Assembly (NCBI GenBank): GCA_964613435.1
Contig: CAZTHA010000002.1
Location: 1 to 41,761, forward strand
Direction: 5' to 3'
DNA from: an uncultured bacterium
GTDB lineage: Bacteria > Muiribacteriota > Ozemobacteria > Ozemobacterales > Ozemobacteraceae
DNA length: 41,761 nt
Part shown: positions 1 to 9,067 of the stretch, one piece after another
Layout: the number at the start of each line of letters is the position of its first letter
Numbering within the stretch: position 1 is the first letter of the stretch
Translations under genes and position numbers: made by a program
Notes under the pieces: generated by a model
Told to the model about the DNA's origin: nothing
Databases searched by the model: none
Seen by the model: only the letters and a program-made list of their open reading frames with translations

Positions 1-597
1 GCAAACCGGATGCTTGGACGAGCAGATGATGATTTCTGAGCCTTTTACGGCGGTTCCGCAGTTGGCGCAGTTCATGATGCTGTTTTCATCTATTTTCTCT
101 GCCTGGGTTTCGGACAATACTTTGTCGCTGGCGCTGTAATAAGATGAAAAGTCGAATGTATCTATGGGAAACCTGCTGCCATTTTGACTGGCCCACTTGG
201 CCGCCTCGCCATTGAGGGGGCTTTTCAGGTTATAACTCTGGTAGGAAAGCATTTCGCCGATGCGCACGATGAGATTGGGAAGAGATTCCCCAGCTGCCCA
301 GTGGTCACCGATGCAGATGGCATGGGGAGCAATGTTGGGATGAAATACCGGCGTAAGCATTCGGCACTGGGGTGGTTGACGGGGATAAGAAGCCGAAAGA
401 TAGATTTCGGCAATATGGTTGTTTTTTACCTTAACGGAGCCGTCAGGGTTCATTACCAGGCTGTTGACCAGAAATTCGATCTGATACTTTTCAGGCGGAT
501 GACCGGTGGCAGCTTTGATGTGAATGCGACTTTCCTCATTGAAGGTAGCAACAATTTTTTCGTAGTCTGACTGTAGACGTCGGTGTCTTATACTCAT
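1..597 (-). CDS. Ubiquitin-conjugating enzyme (E2/UBC-fold) homolog with C-terminal Cys-rich zinc module; C-terminus runs off the window
   Basis: Absent from the ORF track because there is no stop inside the window. Hand translation of the minus strand from ATG 597..595 stays open for all 199 codons to base 1: MSIRHRRLQSDYEKIVATF...EIYLSASYPRQPPQCRMLTPVFHPNIAPHAICIGDHWAAGESLPNLIVRIGEMLSYQSYNLKSPLNGEAAKW... UBC landmarks present: N-terminal RLQxDY helix, YPxxPP, HPN triad (334..342) and a Cys 9 residues after the His (Cys95, 313..315). From aa 177, CANCGTAVKGSEIIICSSKHPVC repeats the CxxC-x11/12-C opening of the zinc fingers in the two upstream genes. ATGA overlap with the preceding gene (594..597). 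Confidence 0.85.
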   Translation of the reverse strand, partial: MSIRHRRLQSDYEKIVATFNEESRIHIKAATGHPPEKYQIEFLVNSLVMNPDGSVKVKNNHIAEIYLSASYPRQPPQCRMLTPVFHPNIAPHAICIGDHWAAGESLPNLIVRIGEMLSYQSYNLKSPLNGEAAKWASQNGSRFPIDTFDFSSYYSASDKVLSETQAEKIDENSIMNCANCGTAVKGSEIIICSSKHPVC

Positions 598-1931
598 CGG
601 TTAGGTTCCTTTTCAGCCAGCTGGCCGGCTCCTGAAAGGGCAAGCAGTTCAAGCCATTCTGGTTCGAGCAGCTGGAAAAATTCATCAATTGCAATTGAAA
701 AGTTTAGGCCTTCAGTGGCGGTTTTGGCATATATCCAGGTGTTTACTCCGATCAGGTACCCTTCGAGGTCATAGAGCCCGCCACCGGAATTGCCGTGATT
801 GAGCGGAGTCTGCATCTGAACGACGGTTATTTCTCTTGAACCATGTCGATTTTTGCGCAGGGCAGAAATCACGCCATCGGTGTATGTCCAGTTCAGGCCG
901 ATAGGATTACCGATGGCAAATACTCTTTGTCCCATTGTAAGCGCGCGGCCTTGCTGGTATTTCAGCTGAGGAACGAACCCGTTGGGGGTGCTCACTCTGA
1001 TCAAGGCCAGATCAATTTCATCTGGTGCCAGCCAAACCGGGGTTGCCCCCGTGGTTTCGCCGGAGTAAAAGGTCACTTCGACGTTGCCGGCCTTTGCTTT
1101 CAGCTCTTCAAGAGATTTTACCCGGGTTCCGAGGGTGAGCACATGGGCGTTGGTCAAAATGTAAGTGAAGGCGTCGCGGTTACAAAGGGCTATTCCTGAA
1201 CCCATGCCCATTCTAAAGCCACTGCCGGCTTTGATGTGAACATTTGCCATCAGCGGGCCTTTGATGGCAGGGGCCGCTGTGCGAATTGCTTCGCCAATTT
1301 GTTTCATATCCGGTTTGAATTGTTCGCCCTGTTCGGTTTCGGGGTTCATCAGGGGATAAAGGGTGAGCAACAGAGCGATAATGGCGCTGCCCATTCCGGC
1401 AAAAGACAGAGGCAGGCCTTTACTGGTGCTGTTATTTTGAAAGGTTGCGATTGAAATCGCGCCGACCAGGACTGAAACCAGACAACCGCCAAGAGAAAGC
1501 AGAAAGACTGCCGTCTGGTATTCGGAGACCTTTTCGGTCGAAAAATTGACGAGGCTTACTGCAAGGGTACCCAGGCCGATAACCAGGGCAAAAATCGCCA
1601 GGGGTGACCAGGTCAGCTTTTGTTGCTGCTGAATCTCATCAGCAATGGCCGCGGTACCATATCTGCTGTTGGCCGGAACCTCTTTAAGATTTTCAAGGTC
1701 AGCTTTGGTAATAACGATATCAGCGGAGCCACCGGTAATTGGGGCGGAACTGCCGGCCCGGCAATGATAGCTGCCGCAACCGCATCTTTGCCAGCAGATT
1801 TCGTGGTTCATCGCCCCGCATTTGTGACAAATGTAAGCTGCTTCGCCCTCTTTAAGGGGTTGCAGGCACGATGGGCATGCTGTTCCAGCTCTAAGGCCGT
1901 CTACGATAATTCTGTCTCCGTTTGTGTTCAT
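594..1931 (-). CDS. Membrane protein: N-terminal C4HC3 RING/PHD-like zinc finger, 3 predicted TM helices, C-terminal trypsin-like (S1/Trypsin_2) serine protease
   Basis: 445-aa ORF. Finger at aa 19-57: CPSC-x12-CHKC-x4-H-x2-CW-x2-CGCGSYHC. Hydrophobic segments at about aa 108-130, 140-164 and 173-195. Catalytic triad contexts: LTNAHVL (His263, 1143..1145), DLALIRV (Asp307, 1011..1013), GNSGGGLY (Ser382, 786..788). ATGA overlaps at both ends. Confidence 0.85.
   Translation of the reverse strand: MNTNGDRIIVDGLRAGTACPSCLQPLKEGEAAYICHKCGAMNHEICWQRCGCGSYHCRAGSSAPITGGSADIVITKADLENLKEVPANSRYGTAAIADEIQQQQKLTWSPLAIFALVIGLGTLAVSLVNFSTEKVSEYQTAVFLLSLGGCLVSVLVGAISIATFQNNSTSKGLPLSFAGMGSAIIALLLTLYPLMNPETEQGEQFKPDMKQIGEAIRTAAPAIKGPLMANVHIKAGSGFRMGMGSGIALCNRDAFTYILTNAHVLTLGTRVKSLEELKAKAGNVEVTFYSGETTGATPVWLAPDEIDLALIRVSTPNGFVPQLKYQQGRALTMGQRVFAIGNPIGLNWTYTDGVISALRKNRHGSREITVVQMQTPLNHGNSGGGLYDLEGYLIGVNTWIYAKTATEGLNFSIAIDEFFQLLEPEWLELLALSGAGQLAEKEPNR
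1761..1877 (-). other. C4HC3 cross-brace-type zinc finger (RING/PHD-like, candidate prokaryotic RING) module 1
   Basis: Ligand pattern C19-x2-C22-x12-C35-x2-C38-x4-H43-x2-C46-x3-C50-x-C52-x4-C57, with Trp directly after the 6th ligand. Boundary Cys codons checked on the DNA (gca at 1875..1877 and 1761..1763). Confidence 0.65.
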
Positions 1932-2599
1932 TTGAATACCATCGAATAAAGGATGAAAATTACGGCTATCGCTGCCCAGAGAACCGAAATAGCCATTGCC
2001 GCATAAAAAAGAACTTTCAGGGATGGCGGCAGGCGCTTGGCTCTGAAACTCCAGCTATCGGTAAAAGCTGCGATAAGGTTCAACGGCAGCATGATGAAAA
2101 CGAGGCAGCCGATGGTGCTAAAGACAAATTGGGCAATGACCGCTGTTTTTATTCTTCCGAGTTCTTTTTCGTCATAGATTCGGTCTTGCCACTCGACCTT
2201 GGTCATCGGTCGTTCGGTTGGAAAAGTCGCTTTACATACCTTGCAGACAAGGGCATTTGCGATGATGCTCGAACCGCATTCTGGGCATTTTTTTTCGGCA
2301 GTCCAACCTGGGGTGAAAATATCCTCCGGAACTGCTTCCTTGGCGACAGTGACCGGTGCGGCCGCACAACCGTAGGTGCCGCAACCGCCGATTTCCTGCC
2401 AGCAGTCATGGTGGTAGGGCAAAGAACACTCTGGACAGACGACAATGGTGTCGCTCTGCATTATTCCGGTGCCACAGGTCGAGCAGATTTTGCCGATGTG
2501 TTCAGCAGATGGAGAAACTGGACTAACCTGTACTCTTTTGCCAACGTTTACTGGCCGCTGCATTTTTCCGGTTTTACTGCCAGGTTTGAGGGTGTTCAT
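1928..2599 (-). CDS. Membrane protein: C4HC3 RING/PHD-like zinc finger, a second CxxC..CxxC zinc ribbon, 2 C-terminal TM helices
   Basis: 223-aa ORF. Finger at aa 39-78: CSTC-x12-CPEC-x4-HH-x-CW-x5-CGTYGC, paralogous to the finger in 594..1931. Second ribbon: KCPECGSSIIANALVCKVC. Hydrophobic segments at about aa 150-176 and 190-222. ATGA overlaps at both ends. Confidence 0.8.
   Translation of the reverse strand: MNTLKPGSKTGKMQRPVNVGKRVQVSPVSPSAEHIGKICSTCGTGIMQSDTIVVCPECSLPYHHDCWQEIGGCGTYGCAAAPVTVAKEAVPEDIFTPGWTAEKKCPECGSSIIANALVCKVCKATFPTERPMTKVEWQDRIYDEKELGRIKTAVIAQFVFSTIGCLVFIMLPLNLIAAFTDSWSFRAKRLPPSLKVLFYAAMAISVLWAAIAVIFILYSMVFK
2366..2485 (-). other. C4HC3 cross-brace-type zinc finger (RING/PHD-like) module 2
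   Basis: C39-x2-C42-x12-C55-x2-C58-x4-H63-x2-C66-x6-C73-x4-C78, again with CW after the His. Boundary Cys codons checked (gca 2483..2485, aca 2366..2368). Confidence 0.65.
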
Positions 2600-3696
2600 G
2601 ATCTTTCCTTTTGCTGAAACTCAAGCAGACTTTCGCCAATAATGATGACATCGCCTTTTTCAAGAACTTTTCTGGCGACTCTCTGTGAGTTGACAAAAAC
2701 GCCCTGAGGGCTGTTCTTGTCGATAACCTCAAATTTGCTGCCAACCTGTTTGATTTCAGCGTGATGCGGCTCAACGGCGGGATCTTTGAAAATGTAGACA
2801 TCGCATTTTGGTGAGCTGCCGATTATAGTCGGATTGTGGTAGATTACGAATTGTTTGCCTCTGAGTGGGCCAGTTTTCATGATCAACCAGGCGTCTTTGG
2901 TCAGATTCTCGACCAGTCCGGTAAATACTCCGACCATCAAGCCAATGATACAGAATCCGATCATACGGCTGGTACCGCCAGAGTCAGCAAAGCCGAGCTT
3001 CGTAAGTGAAAAGCCAATTGGGTCAAAAAGCAGTCCGCCGAGGAAACCGCCAAGAAGCCCACCGACCATGCCGTTAAGAAGGAGTTTTTTCGATTTCAGG
3101 GCAATGCCGGGTCCAACCCCCATGCCGGCGCCGACTATTGTCCAGGCCATGGCTCTGGCACTGATCAGAACAAAAAGAATGCCAGGGGTAAGGAAGGCCA
3201 GCGGGTCAGCCGGATTCGGTTGCTCTGAGGGCATATTTCTTAGAAAGAACGGCAGACCAAAAGCCTTGACCAGGTTCATCGCAAAACCGCCAATCATGGT
3301 ACCGACAATCCCCCAGACCAAACCAATGCCGACGCCAATTCCGCCACATCGCATGGCCTTGAGAAAGTTTCGCGACATTATGCCTTCGATCAGGCCAACG
3401 AACAGACCTATCATTGCTGGTACCGCGACGAGCATCATTAAAATGCCGGAGCCCCGTTCTTCAGAAGAACCGGGGGAAGTAATGAAGGGCTCGAACAGTG
3501 CCCAGGCAAGAAAAGCCCCGGCTAGTCCAGCTGCTGCCGTATAAAAAACCGGATTCAACCAGAACGCGGTTTCTACCGGGGCTCTTTCGGCGGGGGTAAG
3601 CTGGCGTCGAGCCGCCTGGTGAGCCATAAGCATGTCTTCCACTTTGGGGTCACGCAGATCTCGTTTGGTTATGACAATGGTTTCTTCTTCTGCCAT
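2596..3696 (-). CDS. Polytopic glycine-zipper-rich membrane protein with C-terminal FHA (phosphothreonine-binding) domain
   Basis: The track ORF 2596..3726 begins at a TTG. An in-frame ATG at 3696 is preceded by GAGAGGAAAAAA (good SD), so 3696 is preferred. About 6 TM segments rich in GxxxG runs (GGIGVGIGLVWGIVGTMIGG, GMVGGLLGGFLGGLL). The C-terminal ~85 aa (2617..2874) read GKQFVIYHNPTIIGSSPKCDVYIFKDPAVEPHHAEIKQVGSKFEVIDKNSPQGVFVNSQRV...GDVIIIGESLLEF, a typical FHA pattern (G-R/S...S..H..I...G.....D..S.NG..VN). Confidence 0.8.
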   Translation of the reverse strand: MAEEETIVITKRDLRDPKVEDMLMAHQAARRQLTPAERAPVETAFWLNPVFYTAAAGLAGAFLAWALFEPFITSPGSSEERGSGILMMLVAVPAMIGLFVGLIEGIMSRNFLKAMRCGGIGVGIGLVWGIVGTMIGGFAMNLVKAFGLPFFLRNMPSEQPNPADPLAFLTPGILFVLISARAMAWTIVGAGMGVGPGIALKSKKLLLNGMVGGLLGGFLGGLLFDPIGFSLTKLGFADSGGTSRMIGFCIIGLMVGVFTGLVENLTKDAWLIMKTGPLRGKQFVIYHNPTIIGSSPKCDVYIFKDPAVEPHHAEIKQVGSKFEVIDKNSPQGVFVNSQRVARKVLEKGDVIIIGESLLEFQQKERS

Positions 3697-3722
3697 TTTT
3701 TTCCTCTCTGCCGGTGGGGCCG

Positions 3723-4994
3723 TCAAAACAGCCAGGGCAACTTCTCTTTCAATCCGGGTTCAAGACGCGGGTCGAGTTCGATTATGTGGCGAATTAAAGC
3801 TTTGGCTTCGCCAAGCCGGTTGATGTCAGGTGGCGATGCCGATAGAGCAACCAGATAGGGGGTAAGTTGCACCAGCAGACTTTGCGCAATCGTTTGCCTG
3901 AGCTGTTTCATCAGTTCTTCAGATTTTTCGGTCGTGCGCAGGGGCTGGTTGGTTACTGATTCAAGGGCACTCTGGACTCTTGTGCGGCGCTCAACAGAAG
4001 AAGAGGCGATTTCGTCGAGACGAATCTGCAGGGCGCTGATTTCAGAACTAAGTTCGGCTGTCGCCGAGGCAAACTCACTTGAATTGGTCATCTGCTGATG
4101 AAAGCCGTCGGAAAAAGCCTGCAATTTCCCCTGCAGTTGTCGAAGCTCTTCGGCGGCGGCGGTGTCTGCGGCCCAGGCGCCCAGCAATTCTCGGGTTTCG
4201 GCTCTGGCGGTTTTGATTATTTGATCGGTCAAAGCTCTTTGCAGCAATGTCGTTGCCAGAGAAAAACCGATTAGAAAGGCCAGTGCCAGAGTAAGGTAAC
4301 GATATGTAGATCCTTCTTCACTGGGCGATTCGAGCTTTTCTGACGTTGGCTGGGCCGGAATCGGTTGTTGTGAATAATTGGCCTGAGCCGGGAATTTTTC
4401 GCGAATCTCTTCGCTGCCAACCGCGCCCTGGGTAAGACGGTGCATTTCTTCGCCGACCCAGCAGCGTGACAAAGCCCGGGTTTTGCCTTCGATCCAGGCG
4501 AACAGGCCTTCTTTGGAATTGATTGGATCGATTACCAGCGCTACTTGAAACGGTTGATTGAAAAAATAGTCCTGGATGAATTTGTCCATGTCGGAGAGGA
4601 AAATTCCGAAACCAGGGTGGGTGTGATACCAGCCGACAATTGCCTTGTTTTTAAACTTGGCTTCCATTTCGGCATGAATGTAATCCCAGGTTTCATGAGT
4701 GAATGCAACCTGTGCGCCTTCGTTTCTGGCATGTTTGCCTCGAATGCTACCGCTGATGACCAGATATTTTCCTGAGTCGTCCTGGCAGGTTGTGCCGACG
4801 AGAATGCCGCAAAGCTCTACTGCCACGGTTTCTTTGGCGTGCTCCTGAAGCTCCTGATAAACTGATTTTTCAATTAAAACTCTTGGTTCATCATTGTTCT
4901 GGCCGGGAAAAGGTTTATTCTTTTTCTCGTGGGCATCGTAGCCTTTTTGAAAATCAAGGCCTTCAACTGCGGGCTGGATGTTTTTCTGAGTCAT
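3723..4994 (-). CDS. JAB/MPN (JAMM) metallopeptidase, candidate Ubl-processing/deconjugating enzyme, with a TM helix and C-terminal coiled-coil region
   Basis: JAMM motif E77 (VAVELCG) plus H141-T-H143-PGFGIFL-S151-DM-D154 (4584..4625, codons checked). TM-like segment YRYLTLALAFLIGFSLATTLL, followed by heptad-like, Q/E/L-rich sequence. Start set at ATG 4994 (AGGAAAGG SD upstream, 4 nt after the E1 stop). The track start at 5045 would overlap E1 by 47 nt. Confidence 0.85.
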   Translation of the reverse strand: MTQKNIQPAVEGLDFQKGYDAHEKKNKPFPGQNNDEPRVLIEKSVYQELQEHAKETVAVELCGILVGTTCQDDSGKYLVISGSIRGKHARNEGAQVAFTHETWDYIHAEMEAKFKNKAIVGWYHTHPGFGIFLSDMDKFIQDYFFNQPFQVALVIDPINSKEGLFAWIEGKTRALSRCWVGEEMHRLTQGAVGSEEIREKFPAQANYSQQPIPAQPTSEKLESPSEEGSTYRYLTLALAFLIGFSLATTLLQRALTDQIIKTARAETRELLGAWAADTAAAEELRQLQGKLQAFSDGFHQQMTNSSEFASATAELSSEISALQIRLDEIASSSVERRTRVQSALESVTNQPLRTTEKSEELMKQLRQTIAQSLLVQLTPYLVALSASPPDINRLGEAKALIRHIIELDPRLEPGLKEKLPWLF

Positions 4995-4998
4995 TGTT

Positions 4999-6213
4999 TC
5001 AGCCTTTCCTCGAGAGGGTACCCAGCAGCTTTTCGCGATCGCCATTGAGCAGCCAGGTTTTCTGGTTTTCGCCGTCTCTGCCTAAAAACACGTCGAATGC
5101 CGGAACTCCCAGTTCGGCGAGAGTCATCTGTTGCCAGGGCTCACTGCCATCGAACTGATGCGCCAGAATTGGGAAACGTGGCTTTTTGCAGTTTGGACAG
5201 ATTGCTGCTGACTCCTTGACGTTGCCGAGCGAGGCATGAAATTCAGTTTCAATATTGCATTCGCTACAGGAAAAGCCGGTGAGAACTTCCTGGCGAAGTT
5301 CAAGAACCGCCGATTCACCGAGATCTTTTCGGATTATCTGCAATGCCTGCGCCAGGGACAATTTATCGGCCTGGGCATCGAGTTCGATGATCGGCAGGTA
5401 ACTTTCATGGGAAAAACAATCGGCTTTGCGCTTGTAACTGATCACATCCTGGTAAAAATTGAGGCCTTCGAAGATGTAGCCCTTGCCGGAAATGACTTCC
5501 ATGCCGTGCAAAAGCTTGATCGCTTCCTGACATTGTATTGCGGCGATAACGCTGGCAATGGTCGGAGTGGTCGGGGTTTTTCCAGACATCATCTCTTCTC
5601 GGGTCAGCAGAGTGCAGGATTTACGCGCATTAAGTATTTTCCAGTCGACTTCGCTCATTGTACACTCATAGCACGGGCCATCAGGAGAAAAGGCTCGCGC
5701 GATACCGCTTAGGCCTTCTATTGCTCCATCTATCCAGGTTTTTCCGCAGCGAAAAGAATTCTGGTTAATGGCCAGGCGTGCTTCACGATTATCGAGTCCG
5801 CCAAGGATAACGTCGGCCCAGAGAAAAGCGCCCAGGCCAAGATCGGTGACTGCGTTCAGGCAAAGAGCTTTGATGTTGATCTCGGGAAGGATGTCTCTGG
5901 CTCTTTCTGCAGCAACTTCTGCTTTTTGCCGGCCACGATCGGCTTCACGAAAAAGAATAGATCGCGACAGGTTTGAAGGCTCTATCTGGTCGAAGTCGAC
6001 GACGAGAATATTTCCGATGCCAACCAGGGCGAAATTCTTGATAATTTCATTGCCAAGGGCCCCGGCGCCAATAACCAGTATTTTGGCGGCACTGAGCTTT
6101 TTTTGGTCCCACCAGCGAATCAGTTCAAAACGTGAAAAACGGTTTTCTTCCTGATTTGGGTCGATGTGCAGGATTTCAGGGGCTTTATCGGAATTATTCT
6201 GGTCTGAATTCAT
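4999..6213 (-). CDS. E1-like adenylating enzyme (ThiF/MoeB/UBA superfamily) with C-terminal zinc-ribbon domain
   Basis: 404 aa. Rossmann GxGxxG VIGAGALGNE (6052..6069), VVDFDQIEPSNLSRS, GGLDNREAR, CYEC zinc pair, and a candidate crossover-loop catalytic Cys200 (RKSCTLL, 5614..5616) ahead of TPTTPT. C-terminal CSECN-x17-CPNC ribbon. ATGA overlap with the Ubl gene. Confidence 0.85.
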   Translation of the reverse strand: MNSDQNNSDKAPEILHIDPNQEENRFSRFELIRWWDQKKLSAAKILVIGAGALGNEIIKNFALVGIGNILVVDFDQIEPSNLSRSILFREADRGRQKAEVAAERARDILPEINIKALCLNAVTDLGLGAFLWADVILGGLDNREARLAINQNSFRCGKTWIDGAIEGLSGIARAFSPDGPCYECTMSEVDWKILNARKSCTLLTREEMMSGKTPTTPTIASVIAAIQCQEAIKLLHGMEVISGKGYIFEGLNFYQDVISYKRKADCFSHESYLPIIELDAQADKLSLAQALQIIRKDLGESAVLELRQEVLTGFSCSECNIETEFHASLGNVKESAAICPNCKKPRFPILAHQFDGSEPWQQMTLAELGVPAFDVFLGRDGENQKTWLLNGDREKLLGTLSRKG

Positions 6214-6488
6214 TCAGCTCTTCCTGCGGTAATTTCAGGCTGAATTCTCAAGATATCGCCGGATTGAACTCCTGCCTGGCGAAAGGTTTCATCGTCAAGA
6301 AGCTGTCTTCCCGAAGCTTTATGATGAAATTTGTAGCTCATCAGCTGGCCATCAGGCGTAAAGCGTGGCAGATTCATCTTGTCGATCAGAAGAATGATTA
6401 TTCGGTTCAGTGCTTCATCATCGGGTAATTCTGCTTTGACTTTTTTGTTACCGGTAGCATCCCAGATTTCTACCATTACTGACCCCAT
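6210..6488 (-). CDS. Ubiquitin-like beta-grasp protein (Ubl) with C-terminal ..ITAG-RAE tail
   Basis: 92 aa, first gene of the operon. SD AAAGGGGA lies 9 nt upstream of ATG 6488. Sequence VEIWDATGNKKVKAELPDDEALNRIIILLIDKMNLP...GRQLLDDETFRQAGVQSGDILRIQPEITAG has ubiquitin-like strand/helix periodicity. Gly89 (6222..6224) is followed by only 3 residues. Assignment rests on size, position before the E1, and pattern. Confidence 0.7.
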   Translation of the reverse strand: MGSVMVEIWDATGNKKVKAELPDDEALNRIIILLIDKMNLPRFTPDGQLMSYKFHHKASGRQLLDDETFRQAGVQSGDILRIQPEITAGRAE

Positions 6489-6550: not shown

Positions 6551-6586
6551 AAAAATTGCTCGGTTTGAAAAAAAGTATAAACCCGA
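6551..6586 (-). terminator. Weak candidate intrinsic terminator between the TerB-like gene and the Ubl operon
   Basis: Minus strand reads TCGGGTTT-atactttttttc-AAACCGA, then gcaaTTTTT. The stem is 7 bp with a bulge and is AT-rich. Confidence 0.3.
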
Positions 6587-6670
6587 CCAGAAAATAATTC
6601 AACAAAACAGGATACCACTTCCGGGCGGTTTTTATTGCGGGATCGTAAAAAGATTCTCGGCGCTGTCAGA

Positions 6671-9067
6671 TTAATCTCTTTTTGCGCGCGATTTGAAAAG
6701 ATTTTCTGCCTGTTTTTCCTGCTTAACCTGGTTCTCCACCTTTCGCATCAGCATCTTGAGATCAGTTTTTCCATAGCCGAACTTTCTCGCCAGTTGTTCT
6801 ATGTAATCCTGCTCTTCTGTGGCAATTTCTCCATCGGCAAGAGCCATTCTGATTGCCGATTCCATTAACTTATGAGCTTCTCTAAGGTCTTTGGGGATCG
6901 GTATATGTAGTTCACCCTGTTTTACCGCTTCAATGATTCCGCTTAAAAGTTCTTCCGACATCGAGAAACTCTCGGCAAACTCTCTGATGAGTTTCATTTC
7001 GGCATCGTCGATTTTACCATCGGCAAGCAGCATTTGTGCGGCCATACTGATTAAGTCGCGTCCCGAGCGCATCGTTTCATTGTCGACTTTTTCCCGTTTA
7101 ACTTCTTCGACAACCTTTTTGATCAGCTTTTGTTTGAAAACCTGAACAGATATGTATTCCTGGCTTTCGGGGTTGAGAATTTTTTCGAGAATCCAGTCCG
7201 AACCGTCGTTCAAAAGTGCGTTACAGTAGTTACAGTTTATGGCGAAGCCCGAAGTCATTGGTCCACCACAAAAATGACAGTGGGCACTGCTTAGCGCGTT
7301 GTTTAGATTGGTTTTTTGCCCAGGTTTTCTGACAAAGACAAATACGTCGCGCCTTGGCTTTACGAAACGGTGCAGTTGGGGAATTCGCCCCTGGGCGGTG
7401 CAGCTGACCGGGATTCCACTCCAGACGACGAGCAGATAGATTCTTTCGACGTCTTCTTTAACCATTATTGCCTTGAGGGTTGCCGAGGCAAAAGAGATGT
7501 TTTCAAAAAAAGTGAATTTACCGGTTGAAGAAAACAAAAATTTAAAATTTTCACAACATTTTTCGGTGGCGAATCTCTGAATTGGTTCCATTTTTCTCTG
7601 TTGCTCTGCCAGGCGGATCATCCAGAAGACGACGGCACAACGGTCTTCTATCTGCTGGGTCGTGAATTGTGGGTCCGAACCTTTCAGTTCATTCCAGCCG
7701 GGTATAACTCTGGGATTTGCGTATTCCCACTCGCAGGCCTGAGTGATCTGCGATAAGACCCAGTCGTAATTTCCAGAGCGGATGAAGGAATTGCAGACCG
7801 AACAGATGGTGGCCTGGCCAATCAGGATCGGCGCACCGCAGTTGGGGCAGCTTCCTTCCATCAAGCCTGGTTTATCGAGAGTCTTTGCTGAAGGCTTACG
7901 AACAAAAGACCAGTATTCGCATATTTTCTGCAACTTGTTTTCGGCATTGAGAGTTTCGCCGGTAACGACATCGATAGCTGTTTCAACAGCCTGGGCTCGC
8001 ACCAGAACATGGACCTCGTCAAAAATGTCATCTGAAGCGATGCGGGCAATCTGGGCGGTCTGGATGTCGACCTCGGGGCAGCTGAAGCGAATGCCGGCTT
8101 CCTTTTGCTCGGTGACCCGGCAGCGGAACTGCTCGAAAAGGGCGTCGGAAACCATTGCCTGAATGGTTTCAATTTCGTGACTATAGCAGGCGTGGTGGAT
8201 TTTTTCGAAGGCAACTCGAAATTTGTTCAGAAAGTTTTCTGAGCTGAATCCTGGATCTTTTTTGGTTAATGCCAGCATGGACTGTTGAAGTTCAGCGGGA
8301 CCCTGAATCTCGAGAAGGGATGACAGGGCATAGGAATGGCGATTCGCTGTTATTGGTGACTGCTCTTCTTCTTCGGTTTCAAAATCTCCCTGATTCATTT
8401 TTTTTACTTTGCCCCAACTTTCAGCCAGCGCCTGGATTTCCGGGCCGATTATTTCCCAGAGGTCGCCCTTCAAAATGCTGTGGTTTGGATTGATTCTGCT
8501 TTTCTGGGTTGAACTGAGCCTGGCGAGAACCCTGACTTCGCCCTGAGAATAGCGGCTTCTAAGGGCATGGTTGGCTCTTATGGCGAAAAGATGGCACATG
8601 GGCATCATAAGAAGAAAAATCATTGGCTTTTTGAGGAAATACCAGCTTAAAGCGATCAGTAGCAGGGCAATAAAGCTCAGAACTATACTGCCGATCCTTT
8701 TTTGATGCCAGAGAAAAACCGGAACGAAAAATGCGCAGATTACCAGAATGGACTCAATTGGAGCGATGAAAAAATAGAAAAAGCAAAAAAACAGTGATGC
8801 TCCGTAGACTATATAGACTATCGGCTCGGTTTGCTGGGTAATCCTTAGCACTACCAGAGTTACAATAGCAAAAAAGCAAAAAAACGAAACGTCGGGAGAG
8901 AAGTAGTTGTAATACTGAGCCTGGCCATCTTTTATGCCAAGAAAAGAAAGGGTGGTCGGAGCGATGAAGTCGTCGGTAAGGTCCTGAAAAACGAAAGCCA
9001 TGAAACCTGCAGCCAATAAAATAAGTATAAATACTGCATAAAAAGATTCTTTTTGAATTTTCATCAC
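6671..9067 (-). CDS. Large membrane protein: N-terminal multi-TM region, 2x (Tim44-like domain + CxxC..CxxC zinc ribbon), C-terminal TerB-like domain
   Basis: 798 aa. About 6 hydrophobic helices in the first ~165 aa. Tim44-like stretch: FLNKFRVAFEKIHHACYSHEIETIQAMVSDALFEQFRCRV...ICEYWSFVRKP. Ribbons: CPNCGAPILIGQATICSVC and CHFCGGPMTSGFAINCNYC, each followed by DW(V/I)L. The C-terminus (about 6734..7090) has paired ADG-(K/E)I-x-x-x-E repeats (LLADGKIDDAEMKLIREFAESF, ALADGEIATEEQDYIEQLARKFG) typical of TerB/DjlA-N-like domains. Confidence 0.6.
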   Translation of the reverse strand: MMKIQKESFYAVFILILLAAGFMAFVFQDLTDDFIAPTTLSFLGIKDGQAQYYNYFSPDVSFFCFFAIVTLVVLRITQQTEPIVYIVYGASLFFCFFYFFIAPIESILVICAFFVPVFLWHQKRIGSIVLSFIALLLIALSWYFLKKPMIFLLMMPMCHLFAIRANHALRSRYSQGEVRVLARLSSTQKSRINPNHSILKGDLWEIIGPEIQALAESWGKVKKMNQGDFETEEEEQSPITANRHSYALSSLLEIQGPAELQQSMLALTKKDPGFSSENFLNKFRVAFEKIHHACYSHEIETIQAMVSDALFEQFRCRVTEQKEAGIRFSCPEVDIQTAQIARIASDDIFDEVHVLVRAQAVETAIDVVTGETLNAENKLQKICEYWSFVRKPSAKTLDKPGLMEGSCPNCGAPILIGQATICSVCNSFIRSGNYDWVLSQITQACEWEYANPRVIPGWNELKGSDPQFTTQQIEDRCAVVFWMIRLAEQQRKMEPIQRFATEKCCENFKFLFSSTGKFTFFENISFASATLKAIMVKEDVERIYLLVVWSGIPVSCTAQGRIPQLHRFVKPRRDVFVFVRKPGQKTNLNNALSSAHCHFCGGPMTSGFAINCNYCNALLNDGSDWILEKILNPESQEYISVQVFKQKLIKKVVEEVKREKVDNETMRSGRDLISMAAQMLLADGKIDDAEMKLIREFAESFSMSEELLSGIIEAVKQGELHIPIPKDLREAHKLMESAIRMALADGEIATEEQDYIEQLARKFGYGKTDLKMLMRKVENQVKQEKQAENLFKSRAKRD

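Follow-up and report, generated by a model that had tools for sequence, protein, structure and literature searches.

Prok-RING_1 membrane proteins as candidate E3 ligases in a ubiquitin-like conjugation operon of a Candidatus Riflebacteria bacterium

Zinc-finger membrane proteins P1 and P2

The 41,761-nucleotide stretch of DNA analysed here, referred to below as the window (contig CAZTHA010000002.1, positions 1 to 41,761), belongs to an uncultured Candidatus Riflebacteria bacterium of the family Ozemobacteraceae. Near its beginning lies an operon for a ubiquitin-like protein (Ubl) and its conjugation machinery. Two adjacent genes of this operon encode membrane proteins with N-terminal zinc fingers, which we designate P1 and P2; these genes and the whole operon are encoded on the minus strand (Table 1). 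Each finger is about 40 residues long and carries eight ligands. The P1 finger reads C19-PS-C22-x12-C35-HK-C38-x4-H43-EI-C46-W-QR-C50-G-C52-x4-C57 (first ligand at nt 1877, last at nt 1761) and the P2 finger reads C39-ST-C42-x12-C55-PE-C58-x4-H63-HD-C66-W67, followed by C73-x4-C78 (first ligand at nt 2485, last at nt 2366). The shared ligand spacing is C-x2-C-x12-C-x2-C-x4-H-x2-C-x5/6-C-x4-C. A first-pass annotation, made from the sequence without database searches, had noticed this eight-ligand pattern in both proteins, and its coordinates were exactly reproduced. In a six-frame search of the window, a relaxed six-ligand pattern matched the P1 and P2 sites alone. The six-ligand core with fixed spacing was observed twice in the six-frame translation of the window, with 5e-5 occurrences expected from composition, and was found 0 times in 2000 residue shuffles.

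The same annotation had taken the two fingers for paralogs. They share 35% identity in BLASTP (E 2e-7), and comparison of the P1-group and P2-group profiles gave a probability of 98.3% (E 1.5e-14). Twenty-eight homologues of P2 were found in the database, all of them already annotated as PF14446; those with names belong to Candidatus Riflebacteria/Ozemobacteraceae, and one is labelled 'RING finger protein' by NCBI. P1-type sequences and those of a third paralogue group, RING3, were recovered from 14 loci in Riflebacteria genomes and 3 metagenome loci (17 in total), across which the P1 orthologues have the same finger-transmembrane-protease architecture. All three groups keep the pattern C-x2-C-x12-C-x2-C-x4-H-x2-C-[WFY]-x3/4-G-C-x4-C. 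The eight zinc ligands, in C4HC3 order, show no substitution in 21 fingers drawn from the three groups, and they are nearly invariant across 98 distant members of the family Prok-RING_1. Among 19 P2-type sequences (44-80% identity), the eight ligands, W67, and the four cysteines of a second zinc ribbon (C105/C108/C119/C122) are invariant. Cys50 of P1, which had been bracketed as an additional member of the pattern, was dropped as a possible ninth ligand; this position is occupied by Q, N, D, K, H, or G in the orthologues. Searches of a 5.8-billion-protein index with P1 residues 1-236 and with a 56-aa finger alignment returned no matches at E<=0.001; at that index size the former query, rich in transmembrane (TM) segments, and the latter, short one are too weak.

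Hydrophobic segments follow the fingers, as had been proposed; P1 has three of them and P2 has two, with about 50-70 residues between the finger and the first TM helix. The serine protease domain of P1 is positioned after the third TM helix and possesses a complete catalytic triad (H263, D307, and S382). No PDZ domain was detected in this region, and its matches to the NCBIfam models of DegP/HtrA subfamilies were below the cut-off. Since the number of TM helices in P1 is odd, the protease and the cytoplasmic finger would be located on opposite sides of the membrane, with the protease presumably in the periplasm. A diderm cell envelope of the host is indicated by genes for LpxK and a TonB-dependent receptor within the window.

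Table 1. Features of the Ubl operon in the window (all on the minus strand; aa, amino acids; AF2, AlphaFold2).
Feature	Position	Strand	Basis
E2 (UBC-type), N-terminal 199 aa; the rest lies beyond the window start	1..597	-	Pfam UQ_con, PDB search
P1: Prok-RING_1 finger, 3 TM helices, trypsin/HtrA-like serine protease; 445 aa	594..1931	-	Pfam, TM scan, orthologues
P1 protease domain Trypsin_2, aa ~240-420	672..1214	-	Pfam 85.1 bits
P1 TM segments, aa 110-128, 141-159, 173-191	1359..1604	-	Kyte-Doolittle scan
P1 finger: C19,C22 / C35,C38 / H43,C46 / C52,C57	1761..1877	-	translation, AF2
P2: Prok-RING_1 finger, C4 zinc ribbon, 2-TM hairpin; 223 aa	1928..2599	-	Pfam, alignment
P2 TM hairpin, aa ~150-183 and ~193-222	1934..2152	-	hydrophobicity scan
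P2 second zinc ribbon C105,C108,C119,C122, invariant; invariant GW motif before it	2234..2287	-	weak DZR/Zn_ribbon_3 match, alignment
P2 finger: C39,C42 / C55,C58 / H63,C66 / C73,C78; invariant W67 after C66	2366..2485	-	translation, AF2, Foldseek
Six-TM protein with C-terminal FHA (phosphothreonine-binding) domain	2596..3726	-	Pfam FHA 52.5 bits, TM scan
JAB/MPN+ metallopeptidase, intact JAMM motif HTHPGFGIFLSDMD, 1 TM, C-terminal coiled coil	3723..5045	-	Pfam JAB 40.8 bits
E1, ThiF-fold adenylating enzyme, C-terminal Zn-containing extension	4999..6213	-	Pfam ThiF 171.5 bits
YukD-like ubiquitin-like protein (Ubl)	6210..6488	-	Pfam YukD 34.4 bits
Promoter-like site TTGAAT-17-TATACT upstream of the Ubl gene	6574..6602	-	consensus scan alone
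Terminator-like hairpin just before the promoter-like site	6614-6629	-	consensus scan alone

Operon structure and partner genes

In the direction of transcription, the operon comprises the genes for the YukD-like Ubl, E1, JAB, the six-TM FHA protein, P2, P1, and E2. ATGA start/stop overlaps occur at the E2/P1, P1/P2, and P2/FHA junctions, and the operon genes are translationally coupled. The order Ubl-E1-JAB-FHA-P2-P1-E2-RING3-DUF2752 is identical wherever the locus is long enough (17 loci, 40-95% protein identity), with the six-TM FHA gene being syntenic in all loci compared. The promoter-like site upstream of the Ubl gene is the probable start of the operon.

The presence of a co-operonic E2, noticed in the first-pass annotation, was borne out by a UQ_con (PF00179) score of 44.2 bits (cut-off 27) and by the catalytic motif HPNIAPHAIC with Cys95, in agreement with the HPN motif and the catalytic Cys 7-8 residues past it in UBC-type E2s. 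Its closest PDB matches are the eukaryotic Ubc13/UBE2A/B (E 4e-8). Full-length orthologues of this E2, 295 aa in length, were identified in loci L001-L017. The E2 ends in a Cys-rich tail of ~125 aa (26 Cys, 6 His), which is conserved in all orthologues, contains 11 CxxC motifs spaced by 4-8 residues, and has no Pfam match (L004:4000-4377; its first CxxC motifs lie at window ~1-60, minus strand). This tail could bind 6-7 zinc ions and provide a surface on which the three RING proteins dock. The earlier suggestion of a third finger on the E2 did not hold, as the array of CxxC motifs contains no C4HC3 finger. The third Prok-RING_1 finger is encoded by a separate gene, RING3, which follows the E2 gene in relatives and falls beyond the window edge here. 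In RING3 proteins (L004:4707-5252, L001:12883-13569), the finger is often accompanied by an additional zinc ribbon at the N-terminus, by a Pro-rich linker and a second ribbon, and by a TM segment. DUF2752 lies downstream of RING3, together with additional RING3 or zf-ChsH2-TM genes in some of the genomes.

The best PDB matches of the E1 in single-sequence searches were UBA7/UBA1/UBA3 (E 1.8e-24), as compared to 5e-19 for ThiF/MoeB. The ~140 aa that extend its C-terminus contain CSEC...CPNC and possibly form an E2-presenting domain similar to the ubiquitin-fold domain. The longest open reading frame of the JAB gene (ATG at 5045) overlaps the E1 gene by 47 nt, while the ATG at 4994 is located 4 nt past the E1 stop codon. 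JAB relatives begin to align at residue ~14-30, which fits the ATG at 4994 and makes it probably the true start. The Ubl ends with the invariant LRIQPEITAG (11 orthologues), here followed by the tail RAE (window 6210-6221). In other species the protein either stops after EITAG or continues with three variable residues (RAE, KTP, TTP, KAA, RLP). Such an optional three-residue tail after an invariant end points to C-terminal processing of the Ubl and implies that a peptidase exposes its C-terminal Gly; the conjugating end would then be Ala-Gly and not Gly-Gly.

The PADLOC models recognized no defence system in the operon. Weak matches to generic E1 and JAB domains were the only ones obtained, and the fingers, E2, Ubl, and the FHA protein had no PADLOC match. 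Neither NCBIfam nor PADLOC provided equivalog or system-level names for the fingers, E2, and Ubl. The operon is flanked by housekeeping genes, and nothing within window positions 9131-41761 points to a mobile or defence island. Judged by this gene content and by its synteny in relatives, the operon is part of the core chromosome of a diderm bacterium and is vertically conserved.

Family assignment, predicted fold and alternative explanations

Comparison with hidden Markov models of the Prok-RING, RING-CH, and PHD families, which had been suggested in the first-pass annotation, assigned the fingers to Prok-RING_1 (PF14446, gathering score 29.1 bits). P2 scored 47.6 bits as a whole protein and 50.4 bits as an isolated finger. 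PF14446 was matched at E<=0.01 by each of the 21 fingers from the three paralogue groups, including every P1-type orthologue. Of 1.84 billion representatives searched with the finger profile, 4829 clusters matched at E<=1e-3; 2-4 tandem copies are present in many of these. The best 98 of these 4829 clusters were all PF14446, often in combination with zinc ribbons or DUF4190. Bacterial Prok-RING_1 proteins carry TM helices C-terminal to the finger, and P1 and P2 combine this layout with the eight C4HC3 ligands and with Ubl, E1, E2, and JAB neighbours. Thus, by homology, P1 and P2 are members of a large and already curated family. The central idea of the first-pass annotation, namely that C4HC3 fingers at the N-termini of membrane proteins are E3 candidates, agrees with the curation of Prok-RING_1 as a RING family.

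The finding is a rediscovery: Pfam has listed the family, with this very role predicted for it, since 2011. Burroughs, Iyer and Aravind reportedly defined it in that year (Mol Biosyst 7:2261) and predicted an E3 role in conjunction with a YukD-like Ubl, E1, E2, and JAB. The proteins examined here resemble that description in having the same C4HC3 finger by HMM, C-terminal TM helices, and a neighbourhood of a YukD-like Ubl, E1, HPN-type E2, and JAB. They differ from it in nothing essential; the Riflebacteria operon has three paralogues, one of which is fused via three TM helices to an HtrA-like protease, along with the six-TM FHA protein and DUF2752.

A similarity to the eukaryotic membrane ligases MARCH and Doa10/TEB4 had also been proposed. 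It is retained in the layout alone, where an N-terminal C4HC3 finger on the cytosolic side precedes TM helices and works with a UBC-type E2 at the membrane. It does not extend to the spacing of the ligands. RING-CH domains have the spacing C-x2-C-x(10-45)-C-x-C-x7-H-x2-C-x(11-25)-C-x2-C, with C-x-C-x7-H and a distant last pair, whereas the fingers of P1 and P2 show the PHD-like C-x2-C-x4-H and a last pair G-C-x4-C only 5-6 residues past ligand 6. RINGv (PF12906) was matched by 0/21 fingers at E<=0.01. The resemblance to MARCH/Doa10 is therefore an analogy and not family membership.

AlphaFold2 models of the fingers were obtained with predicted local distance difference test (pLDDT) values of 83.8 (P2) and 79.9 (P1). 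Both models display a beta-beta-alpha core (pLDDT ~90), which spans ligands 1-6 and has ligands 5/6 at the start of the helix. The top Foldseek matches in PDB were peptide-bound PHD fingers and RING-H2 domains, accompanied by some C1 domains in the case of P1, with probabilities of 0.8-0.99. The RING-H2 matches included RNF126, RNF24, EL5, and Arkadia, as well as RNF13, RNF12, RNF38, RNF165, and ZNRF1, whose structures were solved with E2 or E2~Ub. In the sequence profile comparison with PDB, ligands 1-6 aligned one-to-one with those of PHD and RING-H2 chains. The models support placement of both fingers in the binuclear treble-clef class represented by PHD, RING-H2, and C1 domains.

Taken together, family, neighbourhood, and model favour the reading of P1 and P2 as two of three Prok-RING_1 paralogues in a chromosomal, inner-membrane-associated Ubl conjugation system of a Candidatus Riflebacteria bacterium, to which we assign a probability of roughly 0.6. 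The fingers are candidate E3s in this system, as suggested by family and gene context. A number of observations speak against this reading. P1 alone scored 23.4 bits against PF14446, which is under the cut-off; it is counted as a member because of the 98.3% probability in the profile comparison with the P2 group. The spacing C3-x2-C4-x4-H5 corresponds to PHD fingers, whose function is that of readers and not of E3s, and PHD and C1 models were matched more often than classical RING models, which were rare (zf-RING_2 in 3). The last ligand pair G-C-x4-C is peculiar to Prok-RING_1 and has no counterpart among solved RINGs, and the region around it is poorly defined in the AlphaFold2 models (pLDDT 74 falling to 44). 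The Foldseek E-values were 0.1-1, with none <=0.001, which is usual for 60-residue domains. Positions that contact E2 are loosely kept: Thr, Ile, Val, Ser, or Ala is found at C1+2, Trp is located at C6+1 and not at C6+4, and Arg/Gln after the last Cys occurs in P1-type fingers only. Finally, the Prok-RING_1 gene of locus L019 (8001-10478) has no ubiquitin-system genes within 8 kb.

The main rival explanation regards the fingers as PHD-like, peptide-binding adaptors that tether the Ubl, the E2 tail, or substrate tails to the membrane, with the E2 transferring the Ubl without a catalytic E3 and without being activated by the fingers. The exact PHD-type spacing of C-x2-C-x12-C-x2-C-x4-H-x2-C, the PHD matches of 14/21 fingers and 30/98 distant members, the peptide-bound PHD fingers heading the Foldseek list, and the non-canonical E2-contact positions are all in line with such a role, for which the bacterial Bil and CBASS-Cap2 pathways offer a precedent of conjugation without an E3. 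We consider it unlikely. PHD fingers (PF00628) are the best PDB matches in both sequence and structure and are identical in order and spacing of ligands 1-6, but they are defined by the last pair W-x-C-x2-C; this pair and its Trp are missing here, and the P2 finger scored 19.2 bits, below the PHD gathering score of 24. The fingers of P1 and P2 also differ from PHD fingers in being bacterial, membrane-bound, and linked to an E2, and both this adjacency and the translational coupling are kept in every genome. Furthermore, PF14446 is curated as RING, and RING-H2 domains from E2~Ub complexes match the models equally well.

A C1-like role in membrane or lipid binding, or as a structural zinc module that organizes the complex, for instance through regulation of the P1 protease, without direct participation in Ubl transfer, appears much less probable. 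C1_1 and C1_2 models were matched by 10/21 fingers and 36/98 distant members, C1 domains occur among the Foldseek matches of P1, the finger adjoins the membrane, and some Prok-RING_1 members lack ubiquitin-system neighbours. However, the C1 scores were under the cut-off, the N-terminal His that is the first ligand of C1 domains is missing, the linker of ~50-70 residues separates the finger from the first TM helix, and the linkage to E2 is conserved. The least probable explanation, a pair of separate zinc ribbons or knuckles that are not interleaved as a cross-brace, which the first-pass annotation had named as the case that would refute it, draws on the compressed and poorly modelled last pair near ligand 6 but is contradicted by the RING/PHD-like position of ligands 5/6 at the helix start in a beta-beta-alpha core, by the one-to-one profile alignment of ligands 1-6 with PHD and RING-H2, and by the absence of zinc-ribbon pairs among the top 50 Foldseek matches.

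Family members outside the operon are diverse in architecture. Four tandem fingers are present in some Prok-RING_1 proteins (L019; P0029, P0030), and one four-finger protein of 825 aa is fused to a WD40 propeller and is encoded near a Tubulin_2 gene. Locus L021 (183-5924), which represents a different lineage, contains genes for an M48 peptidase, JAB, Prok-RING_1 with ankyrin, a further JAB, Prok-RING_1 with CD225, and DUF2752. The finger thus occurs together with JAB, DUF2752, and a membrane peptidase outside the Riflebacteria operon as well.

Proposed role and comparison with known systems

If the fingers of P1 and P2 are indeed E3s, the pathway might proceed as follows. The JAB peptidase would trim the RAE tail of the Ubl and expose EITAG. 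The E1 would adenylate the Ubl and hand the thioester to Cys95 of the E2. The membrane-tethered fingers would then bind E2~Ubl and promote transfer of the Ubl to lysines of nearby proteins. Candidate targets include membrane proteins, phosphoproteins retained by the FHA protein, and the system's own subunits; the FHA protein could bind a target or a regulator in a phospho-dependent manner. JAB may also reverse the mark by deconjugation. The HtrA-like protease of P1, which lies beyond the three TM helices and is probably periplasmic, may couple cytoplasmic tagging to envelope proteolysis. The occurrence of three fingers per one E2 suggests that they serve as distinct substrate or adaptor arms, which seems the probable case, or that they form a hetero-oligomer.

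On a broader and rather doubtful interpretation, the operon would represent a vertically inherited bacterial analogue of endoplasmic-reticulum-associated ubiquitination, in which three inner-membrane RING-like E3s are served by one eukaryote-type E2, P1 is fused to a periplasmic protease, the FHA protein provides phosphothreonine gating, and tagging is coupled to envelope proteolysis. If this is true, the operon would encode a transmembrane RING-protease device for signalling or quality control, of a kind not described so far, and it would supply the first E1-E2-RING cascade endogenous to bacteria that lends itself to reconstitution.

A related system with a biochemically proven ligase is that of Caldiarchaeum subterraneum, where the small RING protein srfp is encoded in an operon with Ub, E1, E2, and Rpn11 and acts as an E3 that requires an Ile, a Trp, and a linchpin Arg (PMC5654768). 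The two operons share a cascade of Ubl, E1, E2, RING, and JAMM peptidase, a JAMM-trimmed Ubl tail, and an E2 of eukaryotic type (PMC5654768). However, srfp is a soluble RING-H2 (C3H2C3) with the canonical Ile, Trp, and linchpin Arg (PMC5654768), whereas the fingers examined here are C4HC3 with PHD-like spacing, membrane-anchored, triplicated, and putative E3s. Eukaryote-like E2s in Candidatus Riflebacteria have been noted in a review (PMC11354881, 2024).

The bacterial Bil, Bub, and CBASS-Cap2 systems are similar to the Riflebacteria operon in encoding E1, E2, Ubl, and JAB-type peptidases. They are defence-island systems without RING E3s, while the Riflebacteria operon is located in the core chromosome and conserved vertically. 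To our knowledge, the bacterial ubiquitin-like pathways studied so far, namely these three, operate without a RING E3. We also know of no endogenous bacterial RING E3, and of no bacterial E1-E2-RING cascade, that has been reconstituted. This lack of a reconstituted cascade and the fusion of a RING-like finger with three TM helices and a protease are what give the locus its value beyond the known family. Because it combines eukaryote-like E1 and E2, a processed Ubl, a JAMM peptidase, and three membrane RING-like fingers, the Riflebacteria operon offers a compact test bed for the origin of RING-dependent ubiquitination and for the role of such a system at the bacterial membrane.

Among the neighbouring reading frames, the plus-strand ORF 184-570 (128 aa) was rejected as a gene; it runs antisense to the E2 gene and is almost certainly spurious. 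The part of the window at 9131-41761 contains genes for an AmiA-like amidase, a molybdoenzyme of the xanthine-dehydrogenase type, a cardiolipin-synthase-like phospholipase D protein, a double GT4 glycosyltransferase, LpxK, DnaB, ribosomal protein L9, TrmO, NifU, a P-type ATPase, and a TonB-dependent receptor. A protein of 798 aa encoded directly upstream of the Ubl operon (6671-9067, minus strand) was considered as a part of the system and dropped, since it shows no synteny in relatives; locus L001 has a PAP2 gene at that place. This protein possesses five N-terminal TM helices, a Tim44-like domain, a C-terminal TerB domain, and two CxxC...CxxC zinc ribbons.

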